NCBI RefSeq assembly: GCF_053078305.1
Contig: NZ_CP166875.1
Source of the DNA: a plasmid
DNA: 64,000 bases
Strand: one strand, 5' to 3'
The notes beneath the pieces are model-generated. The model was not told the DNA's origin and did no database searches. It saw nothing but the letters and a program-made list of their open reading frames with translations. Below, piece by piece: positions 2,604 to 48,001 of this stretch; within the stretch, counting starts at the first letter, position 1; each line of letters begins with the position of its first letter. The translations under genes and the position numbers were made by a program.

Positions 2604-2855
2604 ATGAATAAGCTGGTTTCTGATGGCAGCGTCAAAAAAATAAATTATCCGGTGCTGTATGAGTCCGGAATAACACCTCCGTTATGTGAAGTCAGTGCAC
2701 CAGAACCTGATGCGGGTGGGAAACGCATTGTGGCATATGTTTATAAATCATCACGGAATACGGTTTTTGAAAATCCTGACATTGTAAAAACCTGTACGGT
2801 CAGGGATTTGAAGAATGATTTTGTGAACTGCGATGAGAAAGGTGAGGGACAATGA
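2604..2855 (+). CDS. trbG: TrbG
   Basis: 83 aa, same length as F TrbG; position upstream of traV. Confidence 0.6.
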   Translation: MNKLVSDGSVKKINYPVLYESGITPPLCEVSAPEPDAGGKRIVAYVYKSSRNTVFENPDIVKTCTVRDLKNDFVNCDEKGEGQ

Positions 2856-25131: not shown

Positions 25132-27330
25132 ATGAGTTTTAACGCAAAGGATATGACCCAGGGCGGTCAGATTGCGTCCATGCGTATCCGCATGTTCAGC
25201 CAGATCGCCAATATCATGCTTTACTGCCTGTTTATTTTTTTCTGGATCCTCGTTGGTCTGGTTTTATGGGTAAAAATAAGCTGGCAGACGTTTGTGAACG
25301 GCTGTATTTACTGGTGGTGCACCACGCTGGAAGGCATGCGGGATTTAATCAGGTCCCAGCCGGTCTATGAGATCCAGTATTACGGCAAAACCTTCCGGAT
25401 GAACGCGGCTCAGGTACTGCATGATAAATACATGATCTGGTGCGGTGAGCAGCTATGGTCTGCATTCGTTCTGGCGTCTGTCGTGGCCCTGGTTATCTGC
25501 CTGATCACCTTCTTTGTTGTCTCCTGGATTCTGGGGCGTCAGGGTAAACAGCAGAGTGAAAATGAAGTCACAGGTGGTCGTCAGCTGACTGACAATCCGA
25601 AAGAGGTTGCCAGGATGCTGAAAAAAGACGGCAAGGACTCCGATATCCGGATTGGCGATCTGCCGATTATCCGGGATTCTGAAATCCAGAATTTCTGTCT
25701 GCACGGCACGGTCGGGGCCGGTAAGTCGGAAGTTATCCGTCGTCTGGCCAACTACGCCCGTCAGCGCGGTGATATGGTGGTGATTTATGACCGATCAGGG
25801 GAATTTGTTAAAAGTTACTATGACCCGTCCATCGATAATATCCTGAATCCGCTGGATGCCCGCTGTGCCGCCTGGGATTTGTGGAAGGAGTGCCTGACAC
25901 AGCCGGATTTTGATAATACGGCAAATACCCTGATCCCGATGGGCACAAAAGAAGACCCGTTCTGGCAGGGCTCAGGACGCACCATTTTTGCGGAAGCGGC
26001 GTACCTGATGCGTAATGACCCCAACCGCAGCTACAGCAAACTGGTGGATACACTACTCTCCATCAAAATTGAAAAACTGCGTACCTTCCTGCGTAACTCA
26101 CCGGCGGCCAACCTGGTGGAAGAGAAAATCGAGAAAACGGCGATTTCCATCCGTGCTGTGCTGACCAACTACGTGAAAGCCATCCGTTACCTGCAGGGGA
26201 TTGAGCATAATGGTGAGTCCTTCACCATCCGTGACTGGATGCGGGGTGTCCGTGAAGATAAGAAAAACGGCTGGCTGTTTATTTCGTCGAATGCCGACAC
26301 CCATGCTTCCCTGAAACCGGTGATCTCCATGTGGCTGTCCATCGCCATTCGTGGCCTGATGGCGATGGGGGAGAACCGTAACCGTCGTGTGTGGTTCTTC
26401 TGTGATGAGTTACCCACGTTACACAAACTGCCGGACCTGGTGGAGATCCTGCCGGAAGCCCGTAAGTTCGGTGGCTGTTATGTGTTCGGTATCCAGTCCT
26501 ATGCCCAGCTGGAAGATATCTACGGTGAGAAATCGGCAGCCTCGCTGTTTGACGTCATGAACACCCGTGCCTTTTTCCGTTCCCCCAGCCATAAGATTGC
26601 AGAGTTCGCTGCCGGTGAAATTGGTGAGAAAGAGCACCTGAAAGCCAGCGAGCAGTATTCCTACGGTGCTGATCCGGTACGTGACGGGGTATCGACCGGT
26701 AAGGATATGGAGCGCCAGACGCTGGTCAGTTATTCCGACATTCAGTCTCTGCCGGATCTGACCTGTTATGTCACCCTGCCCGGACCGTATCCGGCAGTAA
26801 AACTCTCCCTGAAATATCAGGCACGACCGAAGGTTGCTCCGGAGTTTATTCCGCGTGACATCAATCCTGAAATGGAGAACCGTCTGAGTGCCGTACTTGC
26901 CGCAAGGGAAGCAGAAGGTCGTCAGATGGCCAGCCTCTTCGAACCGGATGTCCCGGAGGTTGTTTCCGGAGAAGACGTGACTCAGGCTGAACAGCCGCAA
27001 CAGCCGCAACAGCCGCAACAGCCGCAACAGCCGCAACAGCCGCAACAGCCGGTGTCTCCTGCCATCAACGATAAGAAGTCAGATGCAGGTGTGAATGTTC
27101 CGGCAGGGGGGATCGAGCAGGAGCTGAAAATGAAACCGGAAGAAGAGATGGAACAGCAACTGCCACCCGGGATCAGTGAATCCGGTGAAGTGGTGGATAT
27201 GGCCGTTTATGAGGCATGGCAACGGGAGCAGAATCCGGATATCCAGCAGCAGATGCAGCGCCGTGAAGAGGTGAATATCAACGTGCACCGGGAGCGCGGG
27301 GAGGATGTTGAGCCGGGAGATGATTTCTGA
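25132..27330 (+). CDS. traD: TraD type IV coupling protein
   Basis: 732 aa, Walker [10 protein letters not shown]-terminal QPQ repeats as in F TraD. Confidence 0.95.
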
Positions 27331-30300
27331 TGTTGAGTTTCAGCGTTGTTAAATCGGCAGGCAGTGCCGGAAACTATTACACCGACAAGGATAATTACTA
27401 TGTGCTGGGTAGCATGGGGGAACGCTGGGCGGGCAAGGGGGCTGAACAGCTTGGGCTGCAGGGCAGTGTTGATAAGGATGTCTTTACCCGTCTTCTGGAG
27501 GGGAAGCTGCCGGACGGGGCGGATTTAAGCCGTATGCAGGATGGCAGTAATAAGCATCGTCCCGGCTATGACCTGACCTTCTCCGCCCCCAAAAGTGTCT
27601 CCATGATGGCCATGTTAGGTGGCGATAAGCGCCTGATTGATGCACATAATCAGGCCGTGGATTTTGCTGTCCGTCAGGTGGAGGCGCTGGCTTCCACACG
27701 GGTGATGACGGACGGACAGTCAGAAACGGTACTGACCGGTAATCTGGTGATGGCACTCTTTAACCACGACACCAGTCGCGATCAGGACCCACAGTTACAC
27801 ACGCATGCGGTGGTGGCTAATGTCACGCAGCATAACGGCGAATGGAAGACACTGAGCAGTGATAAAGTGGGGAAAACCGGTTTTTCCGAGAACGTGCTCG
27901 CGAACCGTATTGCGTTCGGGAAAATATATCAGAGTGAGTTACGTCAGCGCGTTGAGGCGCTGGGCTATGAAACTGAAGTGGTGGGTAAGCACGGTATGTG
28001 GGAGATGCCGGGCGTACCGGTGGAGGCCTTTTCCGGACGCTCACAGGCTATCCGGGAGGCCGTCGGGGAAGACGCCTCGCTGAAATCCCGGGATGTGGCG
28101 GCACTGGATACGCGAAAATCCAAACAGCACGTCGATCCTGAAGTCAGAATGGCTGAATGGATGCAGACGCTGAAGGAAACCGGGTTCGACATCCGGGCGT
28201 ATCGTGACGCGGCAGACCAACGGGCGGAGACCCGCACGCAGACACCCGGACCCGCTTCACAGGACGGGCCGGATGTGCAGCAGGCGGTGACACAGGCCAT
28301 TGCCGGATTAAGTGAACGAAAAGTGCAGTTCACGTACACGGACGTGCTGGCCAGGACGGTCGGCATACTGCCGCCGGAAGCCGGTGTGATTGAGCGGGCG
28401 CGTGCCGGTATCGATGAGGCCATCAGCCGTGAGCAGCTTATCCCCCTCGACCGTGAGAAGGGGCTGTTCACGTCCGGGATTCATGTGCTCGATGAGCTGT
28501 CCGTCCGGGCACTCAGTCGTGACATCATGAAACAGAACCGGGTGACTGTACATCCGGAGAAAAGTGTTCCCCGGACGGCCGGTTACAGCGATGCGGTCAG
28601 TGTTCTGGCACAGGATCGCCCGTCGCTGGCCATTGTGTCCGGGCAGGGCGGTGCAGCCGGGCAGCGTGAGCGGGTGGCTGAACTGGTCATGATGGCCCGG
28701 GAGCAGGGGCGGGAGGTGCAGATTATTGCCGCTGACCGTCGCTCACAGATGAACCTGAAGCAGGATGAACGGCTGTCCGGTGAACTGATAACCGGACGTC
28801 GTCAGCTGCTGGAAGGCATGCCCTTCACGCCGGGCAGTACCGTTATCGTCGACCAGGGCGAAAAACTCTCCCTGAAAGAGACGTTAACCCTGCTGGACGG
28901 TGCCGCACGTCATAACGTACAGGTCCTGATAACCGACAGCGGGCAGCGAACCGGTACAGGCAGTGCGCTGATGGCCATGAAGGATGCCGGGGTGAACATA
29001 TATCGCTGGCAGGGGGGAGAGCAGCGACCGGCAACCATCATCTGTGAACCGGACCGTAATGTCCGCTATGCCCGGCTGGCCGGAGATTTTGCGGCCAGCG
29101 TGAAAGCCGGAGAAGAGAGCGTGGCACAGGTCAGCGGAGTACGGGAACAGGCCATACTGACACAGGCCATTCGCAGTGAACTGAAAACGCAGGGCGTACT
29201 CGGGCAGAGGGAGGTGACCATGACGGTGCTGTCACCGGTCTGGCTGGACAGCCGGAGTCGTTATCTGCGGGATATGTACCGCCCGGGGATGGTGATGGAG
29301 CAGTGGAACCCGGAGACACGCAGTCATGACCGCTATGTTATCGACCGGGTGACAGCGCAGAGTCACAGCCTGACCCTGCGGGATGCGCAGGGCGAAACGC
29401 AGGTGGTGCGTATATCCTCCCTGGACAGCAGCTGGTCGTTGTTCCGGCCGGAAAAAATACCGGTGGCAGACGGCGAGCGTCTGAGGGTGACAGGGAAAAT
29501 TCCCGGACTCCGCGTCTCCGGCGGTGACCGCCTGCAGGTGGCATCCGTCAGTGAAGATGCGATGACGGTTGTTGTGCCGGGGCGGGCTGAACCGGCCACC
29601 CTGCCTGTGAGCGATTCACCGTTCACGGCACTGAAGCTGGAGAGCGGCTGGGTGGAAACGCCCGGGCATTCCGTCAGTGACAGTGCGAAGGTTTTTGCCT
29701 CCGTCACACAGATGGCAATGGACAACGCCACCCTGAACGGTCTGGCCCGCAGCGGTCGTGATGTCCGGCTGTATTCCTCACTGGATGAAACCCGTACTGC
29801 GGAAAAACTTGCCCGTCACCCCTCCTTTACGGTGGTTTCTGAGCAGATAAAGGCGCGTGCCGGTGAGACATTGCTGGAAACCGCTATCAGTCTGCAGAAA
29901 GCCGGGCTTCACACGCCGGCACAGCAGGCCATTCATCTGGCCCTTCCTGTGCTGGAAAGTAAAAACCTGGCCTTCAGCATGGTGGACCTGCTGACAGAGG
30001 CGAAGTCGTTTGCTGCAGAAGGAACCAGTTTTACTGAACTGGGAGGGGAAATCAATGCGCAGATAAAACGCGGTGATTTGCTGTATGTGGATGTGGCAAA
30101 AGGCTATGGCACAGGCCTGCTGGTTTCCCGTGCGTCGTATGAGGCAGAAAAGAGCATTCTTCGCCATATTCTCGAAGGTAAGGAGGCGGTCACGCCGCTG
30201 ATGGAGAGGGTACCCGGCGAACTCATGGAGACACTGACGTCGGGGCAGCGTGCCGCCACCCGCATGATACTGGAAACGTCCGACCGTTTCACGGTGGTGC

Positions 30301-32600
30301 AGGGTTATGCCGGTGTGGGTAAGACCACACAGTTCCGGGCGGTGATGTCAGCCGTGAAGATGCTGCCGGAGAGTGAGCGTCCCCGTGTCGTGGGGCTGGG
30401 CCCCACGCACCGTGCGGTCGGTGAGATGCGCAGCGCCGGCGTGGATGCACAGACACTGGCATCCTTTCTGCATGACACGCAGCTGCAGCAGCGCAGCGGA
30501 GAAACGCCGGATTTCAGCAACACGCTGTTCCTGCTCGATGAGAGCTCTATGGTGGGCAATACCGACATGGCACGGGCATACGCCCTGATTGCGGCCGGTG
30601 GTGGTCGTGCCGTGGCCAGCGGTGACACGGACCAGCTGCAGGCTATCGCGCCCGGTCAGCCTTTCCGTCTCCAGCAGACGCGCAGTGCTGCCGATGTGGT
30701 CATCATGAAGGAGATTGTGCGTCAGACGCCGGAACTGCGGGAGGCGGTATACAGCCTGATTAACCGGGATGTGGAAAGGGCACTGTCCGGGCTTGAGAGT
30801 GTGAAACCGTCTCAGGTGCCACGTCAGGAGGGCGCATGGGCACCGGAGCACTCCGTGACGGAGTTCAGTCACAGCCAGGAAGCGAAACTGGCAGAAGCGC
30901 AGCAGAAGGCGATGCTGAAAGGCGAGGCTTTTCCGGATGTCCCCATGACACTGTATGAAGCCATTGTCCGCGACTATACCGGCAGAACACCGGAAGCACG
31001 GGAGCAGACGCTGATTGTCACGCACCTGAATGAGGACCGGCGCGTACTGAACAGCATGATTCATGATGTACGGGAAAAGGCCGGTGAGCTGGGGAAAGAG
31101 CAGGTCATGGTGCCTGTCCTGAACACAGCGAATATACGTGACGGAGAGCTGCGTCGTCTCTCCACCTGGGAGACACATCGGGACGCACTTGCCCTGGTGG
31201 ATAATGTGTATCACCGGATTGCCGGTATCAGTAAGGATGACGGGCTGATAACCCTGGAGGATGCGGAAGGTAACACGCGGCTGATTTCGCCCCGGGAGGC
31301 GGTGGCTGAAGGTGTCACACTGTACACCCCGGACACCATCCGGGTGGGGACCGGTGACCGGATGCGCTTCACGAAGAGTGACCGGGAGCGCGGCTATGTG
31401 GCCAACAGCGTCTGGACGGTGATGGCGGTTTCCGGTGACAGTGTCACGCTTTCTGACGGACAGCAGACCCGGGTGATTCGCCCCGGCCAGGAGCAGGCAG
31501 AGCAACATATTGACCTGGCCTATGCCATCACCGCTCACGGTGCGCAGGGGGCGAGTGAAACCTTTGCCATCGCGCTTGAAGGCACGGAAGGTAACCGGAA
31601 ACAGATGGCCGGCTTTGAGTCAGCCTATGTGGCCCTGTCGCGTATGAAGCAGCATGTGCAGGTGTACACCGATAACCGTCAGGGCTGGACGGATGCCATC
31701 AGCAAAGCCGTACAGAAAGGAACGGCCCATGATGTGCTGGAGCCGGGGGCTGACCGGGAGGTCATGAATGCAGAGCGGTTGTTCAGTACGGCACGGGAGC
31801 TGCGGGATGTGGCAGCTGGCCGTGCTGTTCTCCGCCAGGCGGGACTGGCCGGGGGCGACAGTCCGGCACGGTTTATTGCACCGGGGCGCAAATATCCGCA
31901 GCCGTATGTGGCCCTGCCGGCTTTTGACCGTAACGGCAAGTCCGCCGGTATCTGGCTGAACCCACTGACCACGGATGACGGAAACGGGCTGCGGGGATTC
32001 AGTGGTGAAGGCCGGGTGAAAGGCAGCGGGGATGCGCAGTTTGTGGCCCTGCAGGGCAGCCGTAACGGCGAGAGCCTGCTGGCTGATAATATGCAGGATG
32101 GTGTCTGGATTGCCCGTGATAACCCCGACAGCGGTGTGGTGGTGAGAATCGCCGGTGAAGGTCGTCCGTGGAATCCCGGTGCCATCACCGGTGGCCGCGT
32201 GTGGGGGGATATCCCGGACAACAGCGTCCAGCCGGGGGCCGGAAACGGTGAGCCGGTCACGGCAGAGGTGCTGGCACAGCGGCAGGCTGAAGAGGACATC
32301 CGTCGTGAAACGGAACGCCGTGCGGATGAGATTGTCAGAAAAATGGCAGAGGAAAAACCTGACCAGCCGGATGGTAAAACAGAGCAGGCTGTCAGGGCTA
32401 TTGCCGGGCAGGAGCAGGACAGGGCTTCGTCATCAGAACGGGAAACTGCGCTGCCGGAAAGTGTGCTGCGTGAGTCTCAACGGGTGCAGGACGCTGTCCG
32501 GGAGGTTGCCCGGGAAAATCTGCTGCAGGAGCGACTTCAGCAGATGGAGCGGGATATGGTCCGTGACCTGCAGAAAGAGAAAACCCTGGGCGGAGACTGA
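27330..32600 (+). CDS. traI: TraI relaxase/helicase
   Basis: 1756 aa (F TraI is 1756 aa); N-terminal relaxase with HTH motif region, helicase Walker A GYAGVGKT. Confidence 0.95.
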   Translation: MLSFSVVKSAGSAGNYYTDKDNYYVLGSMGERWAGKGAEQLGLQGSVDKDVFTRLLEGKLPDGADLSRMQDGSNKHRPGYDLTFSAPKSVSMMAMLGGDKRLIDAHNQAVDFAVRQVEALASTRVMTDGQSETVLTGNLVMALFNHDTSRDQDPQLHTHAVVANVTQHNGEWKTLSSDKVGKTGFSENVLANRIAFGKIYQSELRQRVEALGYETEVVGKHGMWEMPGVPVEAFSGRSQAIREAVGEDASLKSRDVAALDTRKSKQHVDPEVRMAEWMQTLKETGFDIRAYRDAADQRAETRTQTPGPASQDGPDVQQAVTQAIAGLSERKVQFTYTDVLARTVGILPPEAGVIERARAGIDEAISREQLIPLDREKGLFTSGIHVLDELSVRALSRDIMKQNRVTVHPEKSVPRTAGYSDAVSVLAQDRPSLAIVSGQGGAAGQRERVAELVMMAREQGREVQIIAADRRSQMNLKQDERLSGELITGRRQLLEGMPFTPGSTVIVDQGEKLSLKETLTLLDGAARHNVQVLITDSGQRTGTGSALMAMKDAGVNIYRWQGGEQRPATIICEPDRNVRYARLAGDFAASVKAGEESVAQVSGVREQAILTQAIRSELKTQGVLGQREVTMTVLSPVWLDSRSRYLRDMYRPGMVMEQWNPETRSHDRYVIDRVTAQSHSLTLRDAQGETQVVRISSLDSSWSLFRPEKIPVADGERLRVTGKIPGLRVSGGDRLQVASVSEDAMTVVVPGRAEPATLPVSDSPFTALKLESGWVETPGHSVSDSAKVFASVTQMAMDNATLNGLARSGRDVRLYSSLDETRTAEKLARHPSFTVVSEQIKARAGETLLETAISLQKAGLHTPAQQAIHLALPVLESKNLAFSMVDLLTEAKSFAAEGTSFTELGGEINAQIKRGDLLYVDVAKGYGTGLLVSRASYEAEKSILRHILEGKEAVTPLMERVPGELMETLTSGQRAATRMILETSDRFTVVQGYAGVGKTTQFRAVMSAVKMLPESERPRVVGLGPTHRAVGEMRSAGVDAQTLASFLHDTQLQQRSGETPDFSNTLFLLDESSMVGNTDMARAYALIAAGGGRAVASGDTDQLQAIAPGQPFRLQQTRSAADVVIMKEIVRQTPELREAVYSLINRDVERALSGLESVKPSQVPRQEGAWAPEHSVTEFSHSQEAKLAEAQQKAMLKGEAFPDVPMTLYEAIVRDYTGRTPEAREQTLIVTHLNEDRRVLNSMIHDVREKAGELGKEQVMVPVLNTANIRDGELRRLSTWETHRDALALVDNVYHRIAGISKDDGLITLEDAEGNTRLISPREAVAEGVTLYTPDTIRVGTGDRMRFTKSDRERGYVANSVWTVMAVSGDSVTLSDGQQTRVIRPGQEQAEQHIDLAYAITAHGAQGASETFAIALEGTEGNRKQMAGFESAYVALSRMKQHVQVYTDNRQGWTDAISKAVQKGTAHDVLEPGADREVMNAERLFSTARELRDVAAGRAVLRQAGLAGGDSPARFIAPGRKYPQPYVALPAFDRNGKSAGIWLNPLTTDDGNGLRGFSGEGRVKGSGDAQFVALQGSRNGESLLADNMQDGVWIARDNPDSGVVVRIAGEGRPWNPGAITGGRVWGDIPDNSVQPGAGNGEPVTAEVLAQRQAEEDIRRETERRADEIVRKMAEEKPDQPDGKTEQAVRAIAGQEQDRASSSERETALPESVLRESQRVQDAVREVARENLLQERLQQMERDMVRDLQKEKTLGGD

Positions 32601-33445: not shown

Positions 33446-33817
33446 ATGATGAAAAAAATATTACTGGTGGCAGCCATTACGGGAATGTTCGTTCAGGGGG
33501 TATGGGCAAAATCAGATCAGCAAATCCGGGATGAGGCTAAAAATAATGTGATCACTGTTTCTCAGGTGAGTGACATGACGGAGGGGACCGGTGTGACGCT
33601 GAATGGTCAGATAGTGAAGCAACTGGCAGCCGAAGAGGATCATTTTGAACTCAGTGATGCATCAGGAAGTATTGTCATTGATGTCGATGATGAAGTATGG
33701 CGCCCGCTGGCCCTGAAAGCCGGAGATAAAGTTCAGGTTGTGGGAGAAGTGGATATTTCTGATGAGGGAAACCGGAAAGCCACGGTGGATGTACTGACTC
33801 TTGAGCGTCTTCGCTGA
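33446..33817 (+). CDS. periplasmic OB-fold protein (YgiW/BOF-like)
   Basis: signal peptide and sequence pattern of BOF family; inference from memory. Confidence 0.5.
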   Translation: MMKKILLVAAITGMFVQGVWAKSDQQIRDEAKNNVITVSQVSDMTEGTGVTLNGQIVKQLAAEEDHFELSDASGSIVIDVDDEVWRPLALKAGDKVQVVGEVDISDEGNRKATVDVLTLERLR

Positions 33818-33852: not shown

Positions 33853-34410
33853 ATGACAGAGCAGAAACGGCCAGTACTGACACTGAAACGAAGAACCGAC
33901 GTGGAAACACCGACCCGGAGCCGGAAAACCATCATCAATGTCACCACGCCACCAAAATGGAAGGTGAAAAAGCAGAAACTGGCGGAGAAGGCTGCCCGGG
34001 AAGCAGAGCTGGCGGCGAAGAAAGCACAGGCCAGACAGGCGCTGTCCATTTATCTGACGCTGCCCTCGCTGGATGAGGCGGTGAACACTCTGAAACCCTG
34101 GTGGCCGGGATTGTTTGACGGTAACACGCCCAGGCTTCTTGCCTGCGGTATCCGGGAGGTTTTACTGGATGAGGTGTCTCAGCGAAATATCCCGCTCTCT
34201 CATAAAAAACTCAGCCGGGCGCTGAAAGCCATCACCCGTTCGGAAAGTTATCTGTGCGCAATGAAAGCCGGCGCCTGCCGCTATGATACGGAAGGCTATG
34301 TGACAGAACATATCACACAGGAAGAAGAACAGTATGCGCAGGCGCGCCTGGAAAAGGTGCGCAGACAGAACCGGATCAAGGATGAGCTGCGGGCGATCCT
34401 GGCTGAATAA
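33853..34410 (+). CDS. finO: FinO RNA chaperone (fertility inhibition)
   Basis: 185 aa, basic N-terminus, matches remembered FinO. Confidence 0.9.
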
Positions 34411-34417
34411 TAAAAAC

Positions 34418-34438
34418 GCCCTCTGTATGACAGAGGGC
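34418..34438. terminator. hairpin GCCCTCTGT-ATG-ACAGAGGGC downstream of finO
   Basis: 9-bp perfect stem; A-tract 5' and no T-tract 3' on + strand, so may serve the opposite strand. Confidence 0.35.
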
Positions 34439-34562
34439 AACAGCGAAAAAATCGGGAAAACAGACATCCAGAGTTTTGATGGAGAAAAACACCCAACCGT
34501 TCAGGGATGTTTCATAATGTTTCTGACATAATCCGGGCGCCGGGTCAAGGGGGGGATAAAAA

Positions 34563-34766
34563 ATGGCTGTATCCAGTGGATTATCTGAGCACAGCGGTAT
34601 TTATCGCTATCAGCGCGTGGGGCGTCATGCCGTCCGTCAGGAGATTCGTGGCTTTTTCAGGGAAGCCGCTGAGGCCTGGCAGAATGCGGCCCGGCTGGCA
34701 CCCTGTGAAGCATGGCGGGATTTTGCCCTGAAGAGGGCATCTGCATGCCGGTGTAAGTGCCGATAA
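34563..34766 (+). CDS. hypothetical small basic protein
   Basis: 67 aa ORF with strong GGGGGGAT RBS; weak. Confidence 0.25.
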   Translation: MAVSSGLSEHSGIYRYQRVGRHAVRQEIRGFFREAAEAWQNAARLAPCEAWRDFALKRASACRCKCR

Positions 34767-35511
34767 AAATAACCCCCGTCGCGGAGCTCCGGGGGATCAG
34801 GCTTATATGGCAGATCGTTATTATTATTATTATAGTGGTGTAAGAAGGAGTTGCCCTGTCTTTCAAACGGACATCACAGAATTAACATATTTCACCTCCC
34901 GGGTAAGCCAGCAGGGATAAAAAATGTGATGAATTTCAAGAAGCAGGAGGTGACAGTGGCATGCATAACAGCAGGGTTATCCGGTGAATCTGACAGACAG
35001 CCGGGCTGTATTCGCGGCAGGATAAAGAAAAACCGGGAGATGACTCTCCCGGTCCGTCTTATCGCTAATCCCCTGAGCAGGGCATGTATGACTTATCTAT
35101 GACCATTATATTCAGCGCCACATCCGGTAGCCTGCGATATAACACAGTTATCCTGTCAGTAAGAGCAGGTATGATGAATACACGGAGATTAAAAATATAA
35201 TCTCCGTCACATGTTACCCCCGGAAACCGGTAACGCCGTCACGGGAAAGACGTGACAGAAAAAGCAGCCTCCGTTACTCCAGGTATCAGAAGGCTGAATA
35301 ATGCATGAGACTTTCTTTCTTATGTGTCTGGTCAGGCTGGCTGACCAGCGTTTTTAGTAACACATAGCCATATGTGTATTAAGCCACCTCATCTTATTTT
35401 GTTGAATTGATCACAATTCAACGGTTTATTTTTGGCGTGATGTGTGAGCCGTTATTCATCCCGGCATGGAATTCATGCAATAACGAAAAGTAATCAGTGA
35501 CGGAGAGTAAA

Positions 35512-35973
35512 ATGAAGAAATATATACCACTGGTATTATTTGTTTTTTCATGTCAGGTATTTTCTGCTGATATTCATGGACGGGTTGTGCGTGTTCTGGA
35601 TGGCGATACCATTGACGTTATGTTATCTCAGCATCCGGTGCGTGTCCGTCTTGTTAATATTGATGCACCTGAAAAGAAACAGGACTATGGCCGGTGGTCT
35701 GAAAAAATAATGAAATCTCTGGTTGCGGGAAAAACGGTTACTGTCACATATTTTCAGCGAGATCGTTATGGTCGTATTCTCGGGCAGGTTTATGCACCAG
35801 ACGGAATGAATGTTAATCAGTTTATGGTCCGTGCAGGCGCTGCATGGGTTTATGAGCAGTACAACACCGATCCTGTTCTTCCCGTCCTGCAGGGAGAAGC
35901 ACGACAGCAGAAACGTGGTCTGTGGGCAGACAGCGCTCCTGTTCCGCCCTGGGTATGGCGCTCACGGAAATAA
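35512..35973 (+). CDS. secreted thermonuclease-family (SNase-like) nuclease
   Basis: signal peptide; RVVRVLDGDTIDV...VRLVNIDAPE motif typical of staphylococcal-nuclease fold. Confidence 0.75.
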   Translation: MKKYIPLVLFVFSCQVFSADIHGRVVRVLDGDTIDVMLSQHPVRVRLVNIDAPEKKQDYGRWSEKIMKSLVAGKTVTVTYFQRDRYGRILGQVYAPDGMNVNQFMVRAGAAWVYEQYNTDPVLPVLQGEARQQKRGLWADSAPVPPWVWRSRK

Positions 35974-36060: not shown

Positions 36061-36459
36061 ATGAAAGGTGAACAAATGAACTATCAGGCAGTATCAGAAT
36101 TAATCACATCGTCTAATCATAATGTTCTTATTGTGGGGGACTCAGCTTCTGAAGTTGATAGCTTTTTAAATAAACTGAATATTACTGATTATAAGTATTA
36201 TGATTTCAGCCAGATTTACAGTTGTTCTGACAGAACATTAAATGATTATGCGGTTATTTTTATCAGGGATGCACTGAACGCCAGTGAGCATATTATTATT
36301 TTTAATTGTACAGGATGGCCTGATTTGAATAATGAATCTGCCGTCATGCAGTTTGCCAGAGTGGCACGAAAATCAGGAAAACAACTGATAGTCGCAGTAA
36401 GAGAACAGGATATGAAAAAAATGGAAGCAGAGTTTGGAAGGATCATAAAAATCCACTGA
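36061..36459 (+). CDS. hypothetical protein with alternating strand/helix pattern
   Basis: 132 aa AT-rich ORF; followed immediately by second copy of structured element. Confidence 0.4.
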   Translation: MKGEQMNYQAVSELITSSNHNVLIVGDSASEVDSFLNKLNITDYKYYDFSQIYSCSDRTLNDYAVIFIRDALNASEHIIIFNCTGWPDLNNESAVMQFARVARKSGKQLIVAVREQDMKKMEAEFGRIIKIH

Positions 36460-36530: not shown

Positions 36531-36681
36531 TGTAGTGAAAAGCGGGAAATGGAGGGAATGGTCAGTAACAGGGAATGTGGTATTATCGCGGCGGGTGTCT
36601 GAGCCTTTCTGGTTCAGGCAAGACGCAGGTACTAGAAATGCGAAGACCCCACTTGTTAATCCATTAACTCGTGAGGCCTGC

Positions 36682-36888
36682 ATGAAGTACTTGAACACTA
36701 CTGATTGTAGCCTCTTCCTTGCAGAGAGGTCAAAGTTTATGACGAAATATGCCCTTATCGGGTTGCTCGCCGTGTGCGCCACGGTGTTGTGTTTTTCACT
36801 GATATTCAGGGAACGGTTATGTGAGCTGAATATTCACAGGGGAAATACAGTGGTGCAGGTAACTCTGGCCTACGAAGCACGGAAGTAA
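36682..36888 (+). CDS. srnB: SrnB/PndA-type Hok-family type I toxin
   Basis: MKYLNTTDCSLFLAERSKFMTKYALIGLLAVCATVLCFSLIFRERLCELNIHRGNTVVQVTLAYEARK matches remembered SrnB. Confidence 0.8.
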   Translation: MKYLNTTDCSLFLAERSKFMTKYALIGLLAVCATVLCFSLIFRERLCELNIHRGNTVVQVTLAYEARK

Positions 36889-37494: not shown

Positions 37495-37585
37495 CACGCC
37501 ATAAGGTGGCAGGGAACTGGTTCTGATGTGGATGTACAGGAGCCAGAAAAGTGAAAACCCCGATAATCTTCTTTAACTTTGGCGA
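37495..37585 (-). ncRNA. copA: CopA antisense RNA (approximate bounds)
   Basis: region between copB and tap matches remembered R100 copA target sequence; bounds estimated. Confidence 0.55.
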
Positions 37586-37656
37586 GTGAGAAAGATTACC
37601 GGGGCCATCTAAAAACCGTATAGCCAACAATTCAGCTATGCGGGGAGTATAGTTAT

Positions 37657-43628: not shown

Positions 43629-46600
43629 ATGCAGAAGTACAAGAAAAGAATTAGTATATTAACAAAAAGTGAAATAAATGAATTATATCAAGTCCCCTCT
43701 TTTAATCCTGTTGAAAGGGATGAGTTTTTTTCGCTGGATATCAGCCTTAAAAGAGAAATTGATAAAATAATAAATATAGAAAGCAGGGTGTATCTGATAT
43801 TAATAACAGGGTATTTCAGATATAAACCTGTGATTCCTGAATTTACATTAAAAGACGTAAAAAGGGATGTGAAATATATTATCCAGACATATTATAAAAA
43901 CGAAAGTACTAATCTCAATTTAAACATACCTAAAAGTACAAAGTACCGCCTTGTTAAACGAATGCTTTCTACTCTAGGATTTGAACAACTCACCCCATCT
44001 ATAAAAAATGAGTTAAGTGAACGTCTGAATGATGTTGCTACTATATGTATGGAACCAAAATATATTTTTGATGAATTACTTGCTTTTTTAGGACAGCGGC
44101 GTATAGCTCTTCCTGGATACAGTACTGTCCAGAACCTCGTTTCAGATGCTTTAAACTTTGAAAGGAAAAGGACAATTAATATTTTGTCAAAGAGAATTTA
44201 TCCTGCCACTGCACAAAAGATTACATCCATCATCCATGATGATGGAATATTAAATTCCATCAGGGGATATAATTATAGCACGAGAGACTTCTCAGCATCA
44301 GAAATAGAAAATGAATTAAGAACTCACAATGTGATAAGTAGTATTTACTATGAAATAAAAGATATAATTAATTCATTAGGTATATCCCAGGGAAACATGG
44401 AGTACTATGCAACTATCGTAAAACACAGTACAACATTCAGACTTAAGCGACACCCTAAATGGCAAGGAATACTTTATTTGTGCTGCTACTTGTACTTCAG
44501 ATACAGAGAGATAAATGATAAAATAATCACAGCCTTCAGATATTTAGTAAAAAAACATAAAGACGCTTCAGTTTTGTTTGCAAAAGCTCGGGCAACAGAG
44601 GAAATAGATCTAATAAATAAAAAGCTTAAGTTTGCGAGTAAAATATTTAACTTCTTCGTTGATAGTAACATTGAAGACAGCATCCCTTTTGGATATGTTC
44701 GTGAAAAGGTTTTTTCACTTATATCGAAAGATGATATGCATCTTGTGAGTGAATTTTTTGACAAAAATAAAATCGATGTAATTGAATATCAATGGCAGTA
44801 TATTGACAGCCATCACCTTAAGATCGCCAATTCAATCCGAAAGCTTTTTCTGGCTATAGATATAGTATATGACAACGAGAAGTCTGTTATTGGCCAGCAA
44901 ATTACTGCTGCCAAGGATGATCTCAGAGGAAAAGGAAAGCTGGATGCTAAGGATCTGAGGGTAATTCATCCATCCGAGAAAAATTACATTGTAAAAGAAG
45001 GAGAAATTAACACTCAACGATTCGAATTTCATATGTACAGCAGGGTATCTAACCATCTGGAAAACGGTGTCTTTTATGCTGCGGAGAGTGAACAAAACAA
45101 GAGACTGGAAGATGATCTCATAGAACGAAGTTACTGGCATAAGAATAAATCGATTTTGATAGAGAAAACAGGCCTTGAACGACTTATCACACCAATAACG
45201 CAGACTCTTAATGAGCTGGAGAATACCTTTAGCGATAAACTGGCTCGTATAACCATTGGAATAAACTCAGATGCTAATGAGTTTGTGAAAAAACAACCAC
45301 ACTCCAACAGATTACAGTGGAGTCTGGCCAGTAAAAAATGGAAGACCAGCATCGATAATCCGATTTACAATCAGATAAAAAATATCGGAATAGTTGACGT
45401 AATGAAGTATGTAAACAATGAGACGAATTTTTTGTCTGTGTTTAATGCCATATCATCCAGGAAAAATAATCTTGAAGCTGACTATAATGACCTTCTTGCC
45501 TGTATATTTGGTAATGGCGCAAATTATGGTGTTCACAGAATGGCATCTGCATCAGACCGTAGTATTGGAATACTACGTGATGTGAATGACAAATTCATTC
45601 GTCCAGAAACAACAGGAATGGCCAACACAGTAATATCTGATGCAATTGCAAATCTTTCTGTATATAAATACTGGACGATAAATGAAGATTCTCCATTTGG
45701 AAGTGTTGATGGGCAGAAGCACACTTGCAGAATAAATACATTTAAAGCCCGTTATTCTGCCAAGTATTTCAGAAAGGGGAAAGGGGTTTCTGCGATGACA
45801 CTGGTATCTAATCATGTGCCATTATCAACTGTGGTAATTTCTCCAAATGAATATGAAGGTCATTTTGCATTTGACTTGTTATATAACAACACCAGTGAAA
45901 TACAACCAAAGTCATTAGCGACTGACAATCATGGTATAAACAACGTTAATTTTGCGATTCTTGACATTTTTGGCTATCAGTTTTCACCACGTTATGCAAA
46001 ATTCAAGAAAATATTTAATGAATTATTTGATGTTATACTGGAGAGTGATAAACTCATTATAAAACTTAAAAAACAATTTAACTTTAAGCTCATTGAACAT
46101 GAATGGGAAAACATCCAACATATTATTTGTTCTTTAAGCAGAAAAACAACCATTCAAAGTACGGTTGTTAAGAAGTTATCTAATACAAAGCGTAGCAACA
46201 AGACATTAGCAGCACTTCGGGAGTATGACCGAGTTATAAAATGCATATATGTCCTGGATTATGCTGACAATAAAACCTTAAGGCAATTTGTGCAACAAGC
46301 ACTGAACAGAGGTGAAGCTTATCATCAACTAAGAAGAGCAATAGCATCAGTAAATGGAAATCAATTTCGCGGTGGTAATGACTACCAAATAGATCAATGG
46401 AACGACTGTGCGAGGTTAATAGCTAATTGTGTAATCTATTATAATTCAGCAATATTATCCAGGCTGGTCGAGAAATTTGAAAAAGAAAATAATAAAAAAG
46501 CGATAGATGTTCTGGCTAACTTATCCCCAGTAGCATGGAGACACATTCTCCTTGGAGGGAATTATTCTTTTGAAGATCAAGTTGCGATCACAAATTTGGA

Positions 46601-46667
46601 CAGTCTTTTGGAGGGAGTAGACCCACTAAGTGATATCGGAGATATTGAGTCCGAATATGACGGTTAA
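43629..46667 (+). CDS. tnpA: Tn3-family transposase TnpA
   Basis: 1012 aa, AT-rich, typical size for the family. Confidence 0.9.
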   Translation: MQKYKKRISILTKSEINELYQVPSFNPVERDEFFSLDISLKREIDKIINIESRVYLILITGYFRYKPVIPEFTLKDVKRDVKYIIQTYYKNESTNLNLNIPKSTKYRLVKRMLSTLGFEQLTPSIKNELSERLNDVATICMEPKYIFDELLAFLGQRRIALPGYSTVQNLVSDALNFERKRTINILSKRIYPATAQKITSIIHDDGILNSIRGYNYSTRDFSASEIENELRTHNVISSIYYEIKDIINSLGISQGNMEYYATIVKHSTTFRLKRHPKWQGILYLCCYLYFRYREINDKIITAFRYLVKKHKDASVLFAKARATEEIDLINKKLKFASKIFNFFVDSNIEDSIPFGYVREKVFSLISKDDMHLVSEFFDKNKIDVIEYQWQYIDSHHLKIANSIRKLFLAIDIVYDNEKSVIGQQITAAKDDLRGKGKLDAKDLRVIHPSEKNYIVKEGEINTQRFEFHMYSRVSNHLENGVFYAAESEQNKRLEDDLIERSYWHKNKSILIEKTGLERLITPITQTLNELENTFSDKLARITIGINSDANEFVKKQPHSNRLQWSLASKKWKTSIDNPIYNQIKNIGIVDVMKYVNNETNFLSVFNAISSRKNNLEADYNDLLACIFGNGANYGVHRMASASDRSIGILRDVNDKFIRPETTGMANTVISDAIANLSVYKYWTINEDSPFGSVDGQKHTCRINTFKARYSAKYFRKGKGVSAMTLVSNHVPLSTVVISPNEYEGHFAFDLLYNNTSEIQPKSLATDNHGINNVNFAILDIFGYQFSPRYAKFKKIFNELFDVILESDKLIIKLKKQFNFKLIEHEWENIQHIICSLSRKTTIQSTVVKKLSNTKRSNKTLAALREYDRVIKCIYVLDYADNKTLRQFVQQALNRGEAYHQLRRAIASVNGNQFRGGNDYQIDQWNDCARLIANCVIYYNSAILSRLVEKFEKENNKKAIDVLANLSPVAWRHILLGGNYSFEDQVAITNLDSLLEGVDPLSDIGDIESEYDG

Positions 46668-46976: not shown

Positions 46977-47324
46977 TTATATGCGGATTCCAGCGCGTTC
47001 CGTTCGTTTCGGGTGCTTCCAGTTGATACCTTCAAGAAGCATGGATAACTGAGCCGGAGTAAGGTGCACCTTGCCGTCACGGGTGACTGGCCAGACGAAG
47101 CGGCCCCGCTCCAGGCGTTTGGTGAAGAGGCACAGTCCGTCACTGTCAGCCCACAACACTTTTATCTGGTCACCCCGGCGTCCGCGGAAGATGAACAGGT
47201 GTCCGGAGAACGGGTCATCCTTCAGGACGTTCTGAACTTTTGATGCCAGGCCGTTAAAGCCATTTCGCATATCGGTGATACCTGCAACCAGCCAGATACG
47301 CGAACCTGCAGGGAGAGATATCAT
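46977..47324 (-). CDS. IS66-family TnpB (orf2)
   Basis: 115 aa, typical IS66 orf2 size and sequence. Confidence 0.8.
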   Translation of the reverse strand: MISLPAGSRIWLVAGITDMRNGFNGLASKVQNVLKDDPFSGHLFIFRGRRGDQIKVLWADSDGLCLFTKRLERGRFVWPVTRDGKVHLTPAQLSMLLEGINWKHPKRTERAGIRI

Positions 47325-48001
47325 CAGTGGCTGCTCCCTTTTATTTCGCGGATAAGTGTCTGTAATAACGCCGGCGTCAGTTTACCTTTAAGCCTGAGAG
47401 TTCCGGCCGGCAGAACCAGCTCACAACACAGACTGTCGGACGGTGTATTTATCTGCTCTGGTTCCTGTGCGGGGGCCGGGATTTTATTATCCGGCTCCGG
47501 CGTTAACGTCACGGGAAGCAGTGCCGGCATATTTTTTCCGGAAGGCAGCAGGCCACCTTTCCGGTATTGATGGCGCCAGTTGAAGAGCAGGTTATCGTTG
47601 ATTCCGTTTTCCCGGGCGATCTGCGCCACACAGGCTCCGGGCTGCAGTGACTGCTCCACTAAGGCGATTTTAAACTCATAAGGGAAGTTGGGCCGCCGGG
47701 GACGTTTTTTTACCACGGGGGCTTCGGATATAACGGTGCTTTCAGGACGTACGACTGGTACCGTGGAAAATTGTCCGTAAAGGCAGGCATCAAGTTCCTG
47801 CTCCGACATGCCTGCGGGCAAAGGCCACGAAAGGCCAGCTCTCCGAAAGCGCACGAACATACTACAAACTGTTGATTTTGGTACACCCAGGCGACGCCCG
47901 GCCACAACCCGGGGTAAATGTTCTTCAAAGTGAAGACGTAAAGCTTCAGTGATCCAGGTCCGGTGTTTCATACGATAGTGTCCATTAAAAATGATGGACA
48001 T
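47324..48001 (-). CDS. IS66-family TnpA (orf1)
   Basis: contains KRPRRPNFPYEFKIALVEQSL...LLFNWRHQYR HTH region; start uncertain. Confidence 0.7.
   Translation of the reverse strand: MSIIFNGHYRMKHRTWITEALRLHFEEHLPRVVAGRRLGVPKSTVCSMFVRFRRAGLSWPLPAGMSEQELDACLYGQFSTVPVVRPESTVISEAPVVKKRPRRPNFPYEFKIALVEQSLQPGACVAQIARENGINDNLLFNWRHQYRKGGLLPSGKNMPALLPVTLTPEPDNKIPAPAQEPEQINTPSDSLCCELVLPAGTLRLKGKLTPALLQTLIREIKGSSH

Follow-up and report, generated by a model that had tools for sequence, protein, structure and literature searches.

Between finO and yigB on an F-like plasmid: a probable mosaic of familiar backbone parts

What occupies the kilobase between finO and the nuclease gene that follows it on an F-like (IncF) plasmid? 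The window considered here is a stretch of 64,000 nucleotides from plasmid contig NZ_CP166875.1 (assembly GCF_053078305.1). Within it, finO (33853–34410) and a gene for a nuclease of the SNase family (35512–35973) flank the interval, which is the placement originally proposed. The original prediction went on to describe mostly non-coding DNA with only weak small open reading frames (ORFs), several hairpins, a possible small RNA and a palindromic operator for the nuclease. The non-coding character holds for about 870 nt, the remainder once yigA is subtracted; it does not hold for the 67-aa ORF, which is a conserved protein-coding gene. The reading preferred here, with a probability of about 60%, is that the interval is the finO–yigB spacer of the F-like plasmid backbone, a recombinational mosaic assembled from known types of part and not one new element. 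The parts (table 1) are yigA, half of an antisense RNA, a set of terminators and an imperfect dyad. All are known, and the interval would therefore be mostly ordinary plasmid backbone; no new kind of system is found among its parts.

Table 1. Features of the finO–yigB interval and the gene that bounds it on the right.
Feature	Position	Strand	Basis or stability
Intrinsic terminator directly past the finO stop; stem GCCCTCTGT/ACAGAGGGC then UUUUU	34413–34438	-	−16.5 kcal/mol, z −4.7
Ribosome-binding region of yigA; G7 run then ATAAAAA	34549–34562	+	sequence
yigA; 67 aa, putative divergent ANR-family (AraC negative regulator) small three-helix protein	34563–34766	+	HMM, homology, AlphaFold2
Hairpin CCCCCG...CGGGGG directly past the yigA stop; U-run on minus strand	34763–34795	-	−16 kcal/mol
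Non-coding segment, 476 nt, between yigA and the AS-pc02-homologous block	34767–35242		lineage comparison
(TTA)5 microsatellite	34818–34832		3–5 copies among relatives
Strongest intrinsic terminator of the region; GGACCGGGAGA-GUCA-UCUCCCGGUUUUUCUUU	35020–35060, stem 35030–35055	-	−22.3 kcal/mol, z −5.4, 0/200 shuffles
Perfect 10-bp hairpin; ACGGAGATTA/TAATCTCCGT	35182–35207		−14.6 kcal/mol, z −5.0
Match to Rfam RF02876, AS-pc02 ('Antisense to pHK01_099')	35193–35335	-	61.6 bits, gathering score 40
Hairpin CTGGTCAG/CTGACCAG then TTTTT; plus-strand terminator in the window lineage	35328–35355, stem 35328–35348	+	−13.9 kcal/mol
Candidate promoter; −35 TTAATA (35382–35377), 17-nt spacer with TGn, −10 TACTAA (35359–35354)	35354–35382	-	putative
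9-4-9 inverted repeat; GTTGAATTG-ATCA-CAATTCAAC then GGTTTATTTTTG	35401–35434, arms 35401–35409 and 35414–35422	+	−10.1 kcal/mol
yigB; secreted SNase-family (thermonuclease) gene	35512–35973	+	Pfam SNase 1.4e-29; annotated in relatives; context only

The 67-aa ORF lies where it was predicted, with GGGGGGGATAAAAAATG ahead of its start. It is not one of the weak ORFs: its product has homologues in the ANR family, invariant residues and a three-helix model. YigA is 53% identical (E 8e-20) to the annotated ANR protein encoded after finO in pBH100-1, and ANR genes are annotated at the same place after finO in other IncF plasmids. Despite this identity between the proteins, the DNA of yigA no longer aligns with the syntenic ANR gene. 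Against the NCBIfam model NF033650 (ANR), YigA scores 29 bits (E 6.8e-7), 3 bits short of the cutoff of 32; the syntenic homologue scores 40.1 bits, and 20 of 21 aligned homologues match the model at E ≤ 0.001. Seven residues are invariant in the homologue alignment (A23, E27, A35, W39, A43, A46 and P47). The published ANR signature comprises A10, E14, A22, W26, A29, W43 and R47 plus a conserved C-terminal Cys; YigA residues A23, E27, A35, W39 and A42/A43 align with its first five positions, and W51, R58 and C62 are present at a spacing unlike that of the signature. At 67 aa, YigA is within the size range of ANR proteins, which are 39–80 aa long and smaller than 10 kDa (PMC4038620, PMC4983702). 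AlphaFold2 predicts helices at residues 6–29, 32–45 and 49–66 (pLDDT 88.1). A structure search with this model found no solved structural relative of YigA, its only hits being generic TPR-/MIT-like helical matches (E > 0.5). Judged by homology and predicted fold, yigA is a real gene encoding a divergent ANR-family protein.

Relatives annotate the gene as yigA or as a hypothetical protein. The annotation can be corrected: the gene product listed as a 'hypothetical protein' downstream of finO in some 250 F-like plasmids is, on the same grounds, a divergent ANR-family regulator. Many plasmids of this type come from STEC and livestock E. coli. The G-run ahead of the gene varies in the alignment of relatives, where it has 7, 8 or 9 Gs or reads GAGGGGGG. 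ANR proteins are small three-helix proteins that act by protein–protein contacts with AraC/XylS regulators and H-NS and not by DNA binding. Since they modulate AraC-type virulence activators as well as H-NS, a route of regulatory crosstalk between plasmid and host is plausible. An AraC-type domain is absent from all 10 large non-tra ORFs of the window.

Downstream of yigA lies the lineage-specific 476-nt segment. A search of 72,556 plasmids matched it in about 250, and 219 genomes have it among 5426 complete ones of E. coli; among the matches listed, nearly every record has no feature annotated beneath it. R100/pBH100-type plasmids lack the segment. Stop codons occur in all its frames, and profile searches found no protein-family match in it. 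The 3' end of yigA together with 174 nt makes up a fragment that is present elsewhere in relatives L004 and L005. Several candidates within the segment were set aside. A decayed second ANR gene was looked for with tblastn and short-word blastn, which gave no remnant and no more than a single 13-mer repeat, GGGATAAAAAATG (E 0.008). For a long-range pairing of TCACCTCC with GGAGGTGA (34892/34946), the substitutions in relative L006 are not compensatory. The terminator and promoter scan gave a single promoter-like match, at 34807–34836; it is unlikely to be a fixed promoter because the variable (TTA)n microsatellite sits in its spacer, which would measure 12, 15 or 18 nt as a result.

A mosaic of this kind could also be a mere scar: apart from yigA, the interval would then be a functionless product of recombination, its hairpins leftover terminators of earlier gene arrangements and its fragment of the antisense RNA AS-pc02 a dead relic. 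The homology boundaries of the mosaic are indeed sharp, and the microsatellite, the G-run and indels vary among relatives. The same reading accommodates a truncated AS-pc02 score, which in L006 drops under threshold, a polymorphic dyad, and promoter scores of which none in the window is above chance. However, in about 240 plasmids that span several genera the 476-nt segment shows 95–99% conservation, and every aligned window-type relative has its strong terminator intact and unchanged. Hairpins are far denser than chance allows, and in both lineages the blocks resembling a promoter upstream of AS-pc02 hardly vary. We consider the scar unlikely; the 476-nt segment may have some function.

That several stable hairpins would be found in the interval proved correct. 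It contains seven terminator-like hairpins versus 1.2 ± 1.3 in shuffles. Perfect inverted repeats, defined by arms of at least 9 bp and loops of 3–10 nt, number three distinct examples against an expectation of 0.04, and none of 1000 dinucleotide shuffles reaches three. Fold z-scores for the larger segments of the interval range from −2.6 to −4.2. Several of the hairpins also recur or stay conserved in relatives. Next to finO, a GC-rich hairpin with U4–U8 after it on the minus strand is present in each of the 12 IncF plasmids compared, with stem sequences that differ; in the window, no T-run follows the stem on the plus strand. The hairpin at the yigA stop is read as a minus-strand terminator because its U-run is on that strand, and it is possibly also a 3' stabiliser of yigA mRNA. 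Its stem is kept with changed bases in L005 (about 80% identical) and lost in L006. The perfect 10-bp hairpin has no U-run after it on either strand. The stem at 35328–35348 is conserved in 11 plasmids, with one compensatory change from T–A to C–G; the T-run after it is confined to window-type plasmids. The Rfam model of AS-pc02 begins within the left arm of this hairpin, on the opposite strand.

The suggestion that the region could hold a small RNA gains support from that curated Rfam family, whose match on the minus strand exceeds the gathering score. AS-pc02 is reportedly a cis-antisense sRNA of the IncFII plasmid pHK01. The truly homologous part in the window is limited to 35243–35335, approximately model positions 1–95 of 185, which is the 5' half; in place of positions 98–149 the window has 14 nt, and the 3' hairpin shows no homology. 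DNA homology to R100-type plasmids likewise starts at 35243. In those plasmids AS-pc02 is full length, scores 182–230 bits and overlaps the last 104 nt of the ANR gene (for example in L003). In the window, 427 nt separate the end of yigA from the match, and the antisense overlap with the ANR gene is absent. The window-type relative L006 has an AS-pc02 score under the gathering threshold. Other Rfam families gave sub-threshold noise only, FinP included (14.9 bits, E 8).

Transcription of such an RNA would need a minus-strand promoter, and the putative one listed in table 1 has both hexamers in nearly invariant blocks of the 11-plasmid alignment, GTATTAAG and AGTARCACA. Its position-weight score is not above chance, and the scan of the window as a whole gave best scores of 9–10 against a shuffle maximum of 10.7 ± 1.6, none above chance. 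Relative to the 5' end of the Rfam model, candidate start sites would lie 12–49 nt upstream.

At the position homologous to the window dyad and centred 4 bp to its left, the sister IncF lineage carries a perfect TGTGA-N6-TCACA. This CRP core is found in all nine R100-type loci with a match, each time at the homologous position and also in loci that have no nuclease gene. By its agreement with the consensus the box would be a CRP site. It is located in the upstream region of the putative antisense promoter: the box and the −35 of the best promoter-like match overlap, and the predicted start of a second candidate follows about 60 nt downstream of the box. The corresponding site of the window, TGTTGaattgaTCACA, has two mismatches to the core; there are 35 such matches in the window versus 32.9 expected, which is chance level.

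The dyad itself had been described as a perfect 20-bp palindrome, TTGAATTGATCACAATTCAA, at 35402–35421. That sequence is not self-complementary, its reverse complement being TTGAATTGTGATCAATTCAA; what exists is a pair of 9-bp arms around a non-palindromic ATCA. The dyad region includes a GATC site and the CRP half-site TCACA (35411–35415). The exact 56-mer with the perfect form of the dyad occurs in 6 of 227 related plasmids. Two other alleles were seen, both with a single uncompensated arm mismatch; one of the two occurs in at least 107 plasmids. Compared in this way, the dyad is under no visible selection for symmetry. Two further interpretations were dropped. Both observed polymorphisms keep G·U pairs on the minus-strand RNA (2/2), which is not significant under a transitions-only null (p about 0.25); and an FNR box, TTGAT-N4-ATTCA, matches at only 3 of 5 positions in its right half.

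The proposal that the dyad is an operator, through which a dimeric repressor encoded by plasmid or host controls the nuclease gene, is not supported as stated. In its favour, the 9-bp inverted repeat is real, about 90 bp separate it from the nuclease ATG downstream, and a −35-like hexamer, TTGAAT, is present within each arm, on both strands. Relatives have a transcription-factor site, the CRP box, at the equivalent position, and all seven aligned window-type sequences share the right half-site TCACA unchanged. Against these points stand the allele counts given above and the lack of an adjoining gene for a helix-turn-helix regulator or other DNA-binding repressor; nor is DNA binding known for ANR proteins. 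Compared with the sister lineage, moreover, two 7-nt indels alter the distance to the nuclease gene, and the sister-lineage box persists where the nuclease gene is absent. An operator for the nuclease is quite improbable; a cis-regulatory role of some kind is possible for the site.

The dyad may equally be viewed together with the hairpin at 35328–35348, as tandem rho-independent terminators that stop plus-strand transcripts arriving from yigA and the 476-nt segment, leaving the nuclease gene insulated or attenuated. Both sites are called terminator-like on the plus strand, and the stability of their stems (−13.9 and −10.1 kcal/mol) is consistent with such a function. Both T-runs are specific to the window-type lineage, the one that gained upstream sequence, and the T-run past the dyad is kept or lengthened in relatives. 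The dyad stem, however, is AU-rich with three G–C pairs, and the two other alleles would each place a C·A mismatch in the plus-strand RNA stem. Tandem termination is possible, though less likely than not.

Further small proteins have also to be weighed: an 83-aa ORF at 34851–35102, or a hydrophobic peptide of 18–20 aa from adjacent ATGs at about 35302–35306, which with AS-pc02 would form a type I toxin–antitoxin pair. Such ORFs exist, the short one has an SD-like sequence (AAGGAG or GAAGG) ahead of it in some plasmids, MRLSFLCVWSGWLTSVF and MRFAFFNIRSGSMTGQF are similar-looking peptides, and the antisense RNA covers the start region. But the 83-aa ORF is frameshifted by a 2-nt indel in L001 and L006, indels of 1 and 2 nt break the short ORF in L009, L012, L015 and L016, and the apparent conservation of the latter coincides with a conserved hairpin. 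PGAP annotates neither. Because relatives carry these frameshifting indels and no family matches were found, both readings were rejected as extremely unlikely.

For the preferred reading, that of a mosaic backbone spacer, the following history can be proposed. (i) In typical IncF plasmids AS-pc02 would be transcribed on the minus strand from downstream of the ANR gene and overlap the 3' end of that gene, the minus-strand terminator at the finO stop being placed to halt leftward transcription before finO. (ii) In the lineage of the window the ANR allele would have been replaced by yigA and the 476-nt non-coding segment. (iii) Of AS-pc02, only the 5' half (35243–35335) and its upstream region survive, now about 480 nt from yigA. 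(iv) A minus-strand transcript from about 35347–35385 would read on into the new sequence, and the strong terminator at 35055–35030 would end it. (v) The outcome would be a chimeric RNA of about 300–350 nt that has lost its overlap with coding sequence; two more minus-strand terminators, at the yigA and finO stops, are placed to halt leftward transcription before those genes. (vi) The dyad at 35401–35422 would be the diverged counterpart of the CRP box of the sister lineage. Its left half-site would have been lost, and with its T-run it would now look like a plus-strand terminator, a weak one, in front of the nuclease gene.

A bolder model gives this transcript a function. The AS-pc02 promoter and 5' half, fused to the lineage-specific segment, would give rise to a chimeric RNA on the minus strand, about 300–350 nt long (from about 35385/35347 to 35025), or a shorter two-hairpin RNA ending at 35055–35030. 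With its cis target lost, the RNA would work in trans, for instance as a regulator bound by FinO/ProQ or by Hfq. In the ancestral IncF module, CRP would control an antisense RNA, and this RNA would tune an ANR-type protein that antagonises H-NS and AraC regulators. Taken as a whole this is speculative and very unlikely to be right in full; if true, the ancestral module would tie host carbon status to the silencing of plasmid and host genes.

Each part of the interval can be set beside a known system. With the ANR family (Aar of EAEC, Rnr of C. rodentium, Cnr of ETEC; NF033650) YigA shares its small size (67 aa, below 10 kDa), the predicted three-helix fold, the A, E, A, W, A positions and C-terminal Cys, the HMM match and synteny with the annotated ANR genes after finO. 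It differs in falling below the curated cutoff (29 vs 32 bits), in being only 53% identical to the common IncF ANR allele, and in the spacing of the W...R motif of the third helix. ANR genes are typically, not strictly by definition, encoded near an AraC/XylS activator; unlike them, yigA has no such partner gene nearby, its neighbours being finO and the nuclease gene. In common with a CRP site, the window retains the right half and flank, GATCACA, intact at 35409–35415, in a position homologous to the perfect box. Its left half, in contrast, reads TGTTG (TGTCG in the allele of at least 107 plasmids), the two mismatches leaving it at chance level, and the symmetry axis is shifted by 4 bp. Rho-independent terminators are matched by the GC-rich stem and U-run of the sites at 34417–34439, 34771–34795 and 35030–35055 on the minus strand and at 35328–35348 on the plus strand; unlike the usual arrangement, the three minus-strand sites oppose the direction of all annotated genes. 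As a plus-strand terminator (35399–35424), the AU-rich dyad is marginal.

AS-pc02 provides the closing comparison. The ANR gene of IncF plasmids is normally paired with a convergent AS-pc02 and minus-strand terminators, with a consensus CRP box in the main lineage. The copy in the window lies on the same strand and in the same position relative to the nuclease gene, and homology extends over roughly 95 nt at its 5' end, the invariant UUCAG-CCUU-CUGAA hairpin among them. The 3' half, elsewhere complementary to the ANR coding sequence, has been swapped for unrelated sequence; the score is 62 bits compared with 182–230, no ORF is overlapped, and the terminator downstream (35055–35030) is a different and stronger one. 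RNA and gene are uncoupled in this lineage, which therefore offers a natural comparison for testing the role of AS-pc02.

Annotation of ORFs together with Rfam, Pfam and NCBIfam matches identifies the window as part of an F-like (IncF) conjugative plasmid. The interval 34430-35500, which lies between finO and a nuclease gene and contains a 67-aa ORF as originally described, is a mosaic backbone spacer of known kinds of parts: a putative divergent gene of the ANR (AraC negative regulator) family, a truncated AS-pc02 antisense RNA, intrinsic terminators, a decayed CRP-box region and a 476-nt insert. Plasmid pS88 has the same order, named finO-yigA-yigB(nuclease)-repA2 (PMC3438092). The YgiW/BOF-type OB-fold stress protein encoded before finO has an N-terminus resembling a signal peptide; elsewhere among IncF plasmids this traX-finO spot is often taken by an alpha/beta hydrolase gene. 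The 132-aa ORF sits where R100-type plasmids have hha and a DUF2726 gene. Downstream of the replicon are a Tn3-family transposase gene (43629-46667) and an IS-type HTH transposase ORF (47324-48001), and leading-region genes (psiA, parB-like, antirestriction, DNA methylase, umuC-like, parM) occupy 49.5-63 kb.

Coordinates of features in the window and in L003, a locus of the sister lineage (R100/pBH100-type IncF plasmids with the common ANR allele); other L numbers are loci of related IncF plasmids
Feature	Position	Strand	Remark
traI	27330-32600		followed by traX
YgiW/BOF OB-fold gene	33446-33817		between traX and finO
finO	33853-34410
Terminator hairpin	34417-34439	minus	directly after finO stop
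476-nt segment	34767-35242		between yigA and AS-pc02 block
Terminator hairpin	34771-34795	minus	directly after yigA stop
(TTA)n microsatellite	34818-34832		5 copies in window; 4 in L001/L002; 3 in L005-L008
Strongest terminator of region	35055-35030	minus	-22.3 kcal/mol, z -5.4; within 476-nt segment
Perfect 10-bp hairpin	35182-35207		in 476-nt segment
SNase-family nuclease gene	35512-35973		downstream of interval 34430-35500
132-aa ORF	36061-36459		after nuclease gene; no Pfam or NCBIfam family
hok/sok	36593-36749		coordinates of the Rfam sok match
copB/repA2			followed by CopA
CopA	37549-37639	minus
L003 ANR gene	2301-2513
L003 AS-pc02	2410-2593	minus
L003 CRP core	2660-2675		between ANR gene/AS-pc02 and nuclease gene; also in L004, L009-L014, L016

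The several dyads reported for this interval are far above chance. The interval has 7 terminator-like sites where shuffled sequence has 1.2 +/- 1.3, and 3 distinct inverted repeats whose perfect arms measure 9 bp or more where 0.04 are expected (0 of 1000 shuffles reach 3); segment fold z-scores run from -2.6 to -4.2. In three hairpins the U-run lies on the minus strand, an orientation opposed to the genes. At the finO-proximal spot, a GC-rich hairpin with a minus-strand U4-U8 run is present in 12 of 12 IncF plasmids compared; stem and loop sequences differ, and the plus strand lacks a T-run. We infer that leftward transcription over the ANR gene is probably a regular feature of IncF plasmids and would be halted before finO. 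The minus strand at 35023-35088 has a two-hairpin shape, with the strong terminator at its end, that looks like FinO/ProQ-type sRNA ligands and adjoins finO; its FinP match is very weak (14.9 bits, E 8) and is not evidence.

The sRNA or regulatory region envisaged in the original prediction is supported by a minus-strand match (35193-35335) to Rfam AS-pc02 (RF02876, "Antisense to pHK01_099"); it scores 61.6 bits, above the gathering score of 40, though only half of the RNA is represented. The family is said to have been defined by Jiang et al. in 2017 from RNA-seq of pHK01. R100/pBH100-type plasmids contain the 185-nt model in full length (182-230 bits), overlapping the 3' end of the ANR gene by 104 nt. 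Homology in the window is limited to model positions 1 to about 95, and DNA homology with these plasmids starts sharply at 35243. The match in L006, a relative with the window's yigA allele and 476-nt segment (window-type), is below the gathering score. By homology, the window AS-pc02 is truncated and displaced from the ANR-family gene. The lineage naturally uncouples this RNA from its ANR target, which is, with the re-annotation of yigA, one of the two most useful outputs of the analysis.

Among 72,556 plasmids about 250 carry the 476-nt segment, as do 219 of 5426 complete E. coli genomes. Copies are almost all plasmid-borne, and nearly all listed records lack an annotated feature under the match. 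Its sequence is that of non-coding DNA, because stop codons occur in all frames, there are no Pfam or NCBIfam matches, and an 83-aa ORF is frameshifted by a 2-nt indel in L001 and L006. A second, decayed ANR gene was considered; no remnant was found within the segment, which we regard as a non-coding insert. Its (TTA)n microsatellite separates the hexamers of the region's only consensus promoter match. In two IncFIA/FIB plasmids (L004, 2501-2758; L005, 2501-2664), a separate fragment between hok and aphA comprises, at 78-81% identity, the last ~90 nt of yigA with its hairpin and ~174 nt of the segment that follows, which fits a history of recombination.

The suggested operator was described as a perfect 20-bp palindrome, which it is not, since TTGAATTGATCACAATTCAA and its reverse complement disagree at the central four bases. 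The actual dyad (35401-35422) is a 9-4-9 inverted repeat, GTTGAATTG-ATCA-CAATTCAAC, and is polymorphic within the window-type family. Counted by exact 56-mer match, the perfect form occurs in 6 of 227 related plasmids and an allele with GTCGAATTG in the left arm in at least 107; an allele with CAACTCAAC in the right arm was seen in L018 and L019. Neither mismatched allele has a compensating change, so the symmetry is not being maintained, which argues against a classical operator. At the same position the sister lineage has ATTTTGTGA-TTAATT-TCACAAAAT (alignment of 11 plasmids), a perfect CRP core, TGTGA-N6-TCACA. One copy is found in 9 of 9 R100-type loci with a match, always at the homologous position, and it is retained in plasmids lacking the nuclease gene (L010, L016). 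This core is not mentioned in the literature searched. In the window the right half, GATCACA, is intact and the left half is TGTTG, a 2-mismatch site at chance level; the symmetry axis is shifted 4 bp right of the CRP box axis. On this alignment the window dyad is a decayed CRP-box region, by happenstance an imperfect dyad. In the window lineage a T-run comes after each of two features, TTTATTTTT after the dyad and TTTTT after the upstream hairpin (35328-35348). The sister lineage has neither run; dyad and hairpin can therefore reasonably be read as a pair of weak plus-strand terminators before the nuclease gene.

Two nearly invariant minus-strand blocks upstream of AS-pc02 form a candidate promoter, TTAATA-N17(TGn)-TACTMA, whose start is predicted at the 5' hairpin, near 35347; relative to this start, the sister-lineage CRP box lies at about -60.5. 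The best-scoring promoter-like match of R100-type plasmids is TTGTGA-N16-TAAAAT, also on the minus strand; in it, the right half of the CRP box forms the -35 hexamer. Within the window, no promoter-like score is above chance. The predicted starts precede the 5' end of the AS-pc02 model by 12-49 nt. With either candidate, the CRP box would be part of the antisense transcript's upstream region, and not clearly of the nuclease gene's. In L006, also the relative with the sub-threshold AS-pc02 match, an 11-nt tandem duplication, AGTAACACATA (~1490-1512, window ~35350-35365), falls exactly over the candidate -10 element.

The 67-aa ORF, earlier rated weak, is a real gene, labelled yigA or hypothetical protein WP_001365608.1 in relatives. 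YigA shares 53% identity (E 8e-20) with the ANR-family protein annotated in pBH100-1, and such a protein takes its place after finO in this and numerous further IncF plasmids. At DNA level the two alleles can no longer be aligned; the similarity has therefore been kept in the protein, strong evidence for a coding ORF. Among close relatives, the poly-G run in its ribosome-binding region (34549-34555) has 7, 8 or 9 Gs or reads GAGGGGGG, and is a possible slippage site. The 13-mer GGGATAAAAAATG, spanning ribosome-binding site and start codon (34553-34565), recurs 360 nt downstream (34914-34926; E 0.008 for the comparison), where it runs straight into a stop codon (ATG TGA); this copy may be left over from a duplication of the gene start. 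Of 22 relatives found by an exhaustive HMMER search, 21 were aligned, and 20 of these match the ANR model. YigA itself scores 29 bits (E 6.8e-7) against NCBIfam ANR_neg_reg (NF033650), just below the curated cutoff of 32 bits. Three points count against simple ANR membership: this score, a residue spacing in helix 3 that differs from the published signature, and that none of the window's large non-tra ORFs encodes an AraC-family partner. From its sequence and predicted fold, we file YigA as a putative divergent ANR-family member. The confident AlphaFold2 model (pLDDT 88) has three helices, in agreement with the family description, and A23, E27, A35, W39 and A43, invariant in the homologue alignment, are counterparts of the published ANR signature A10, E14, A22, W26 and A29 (PMC4983702).
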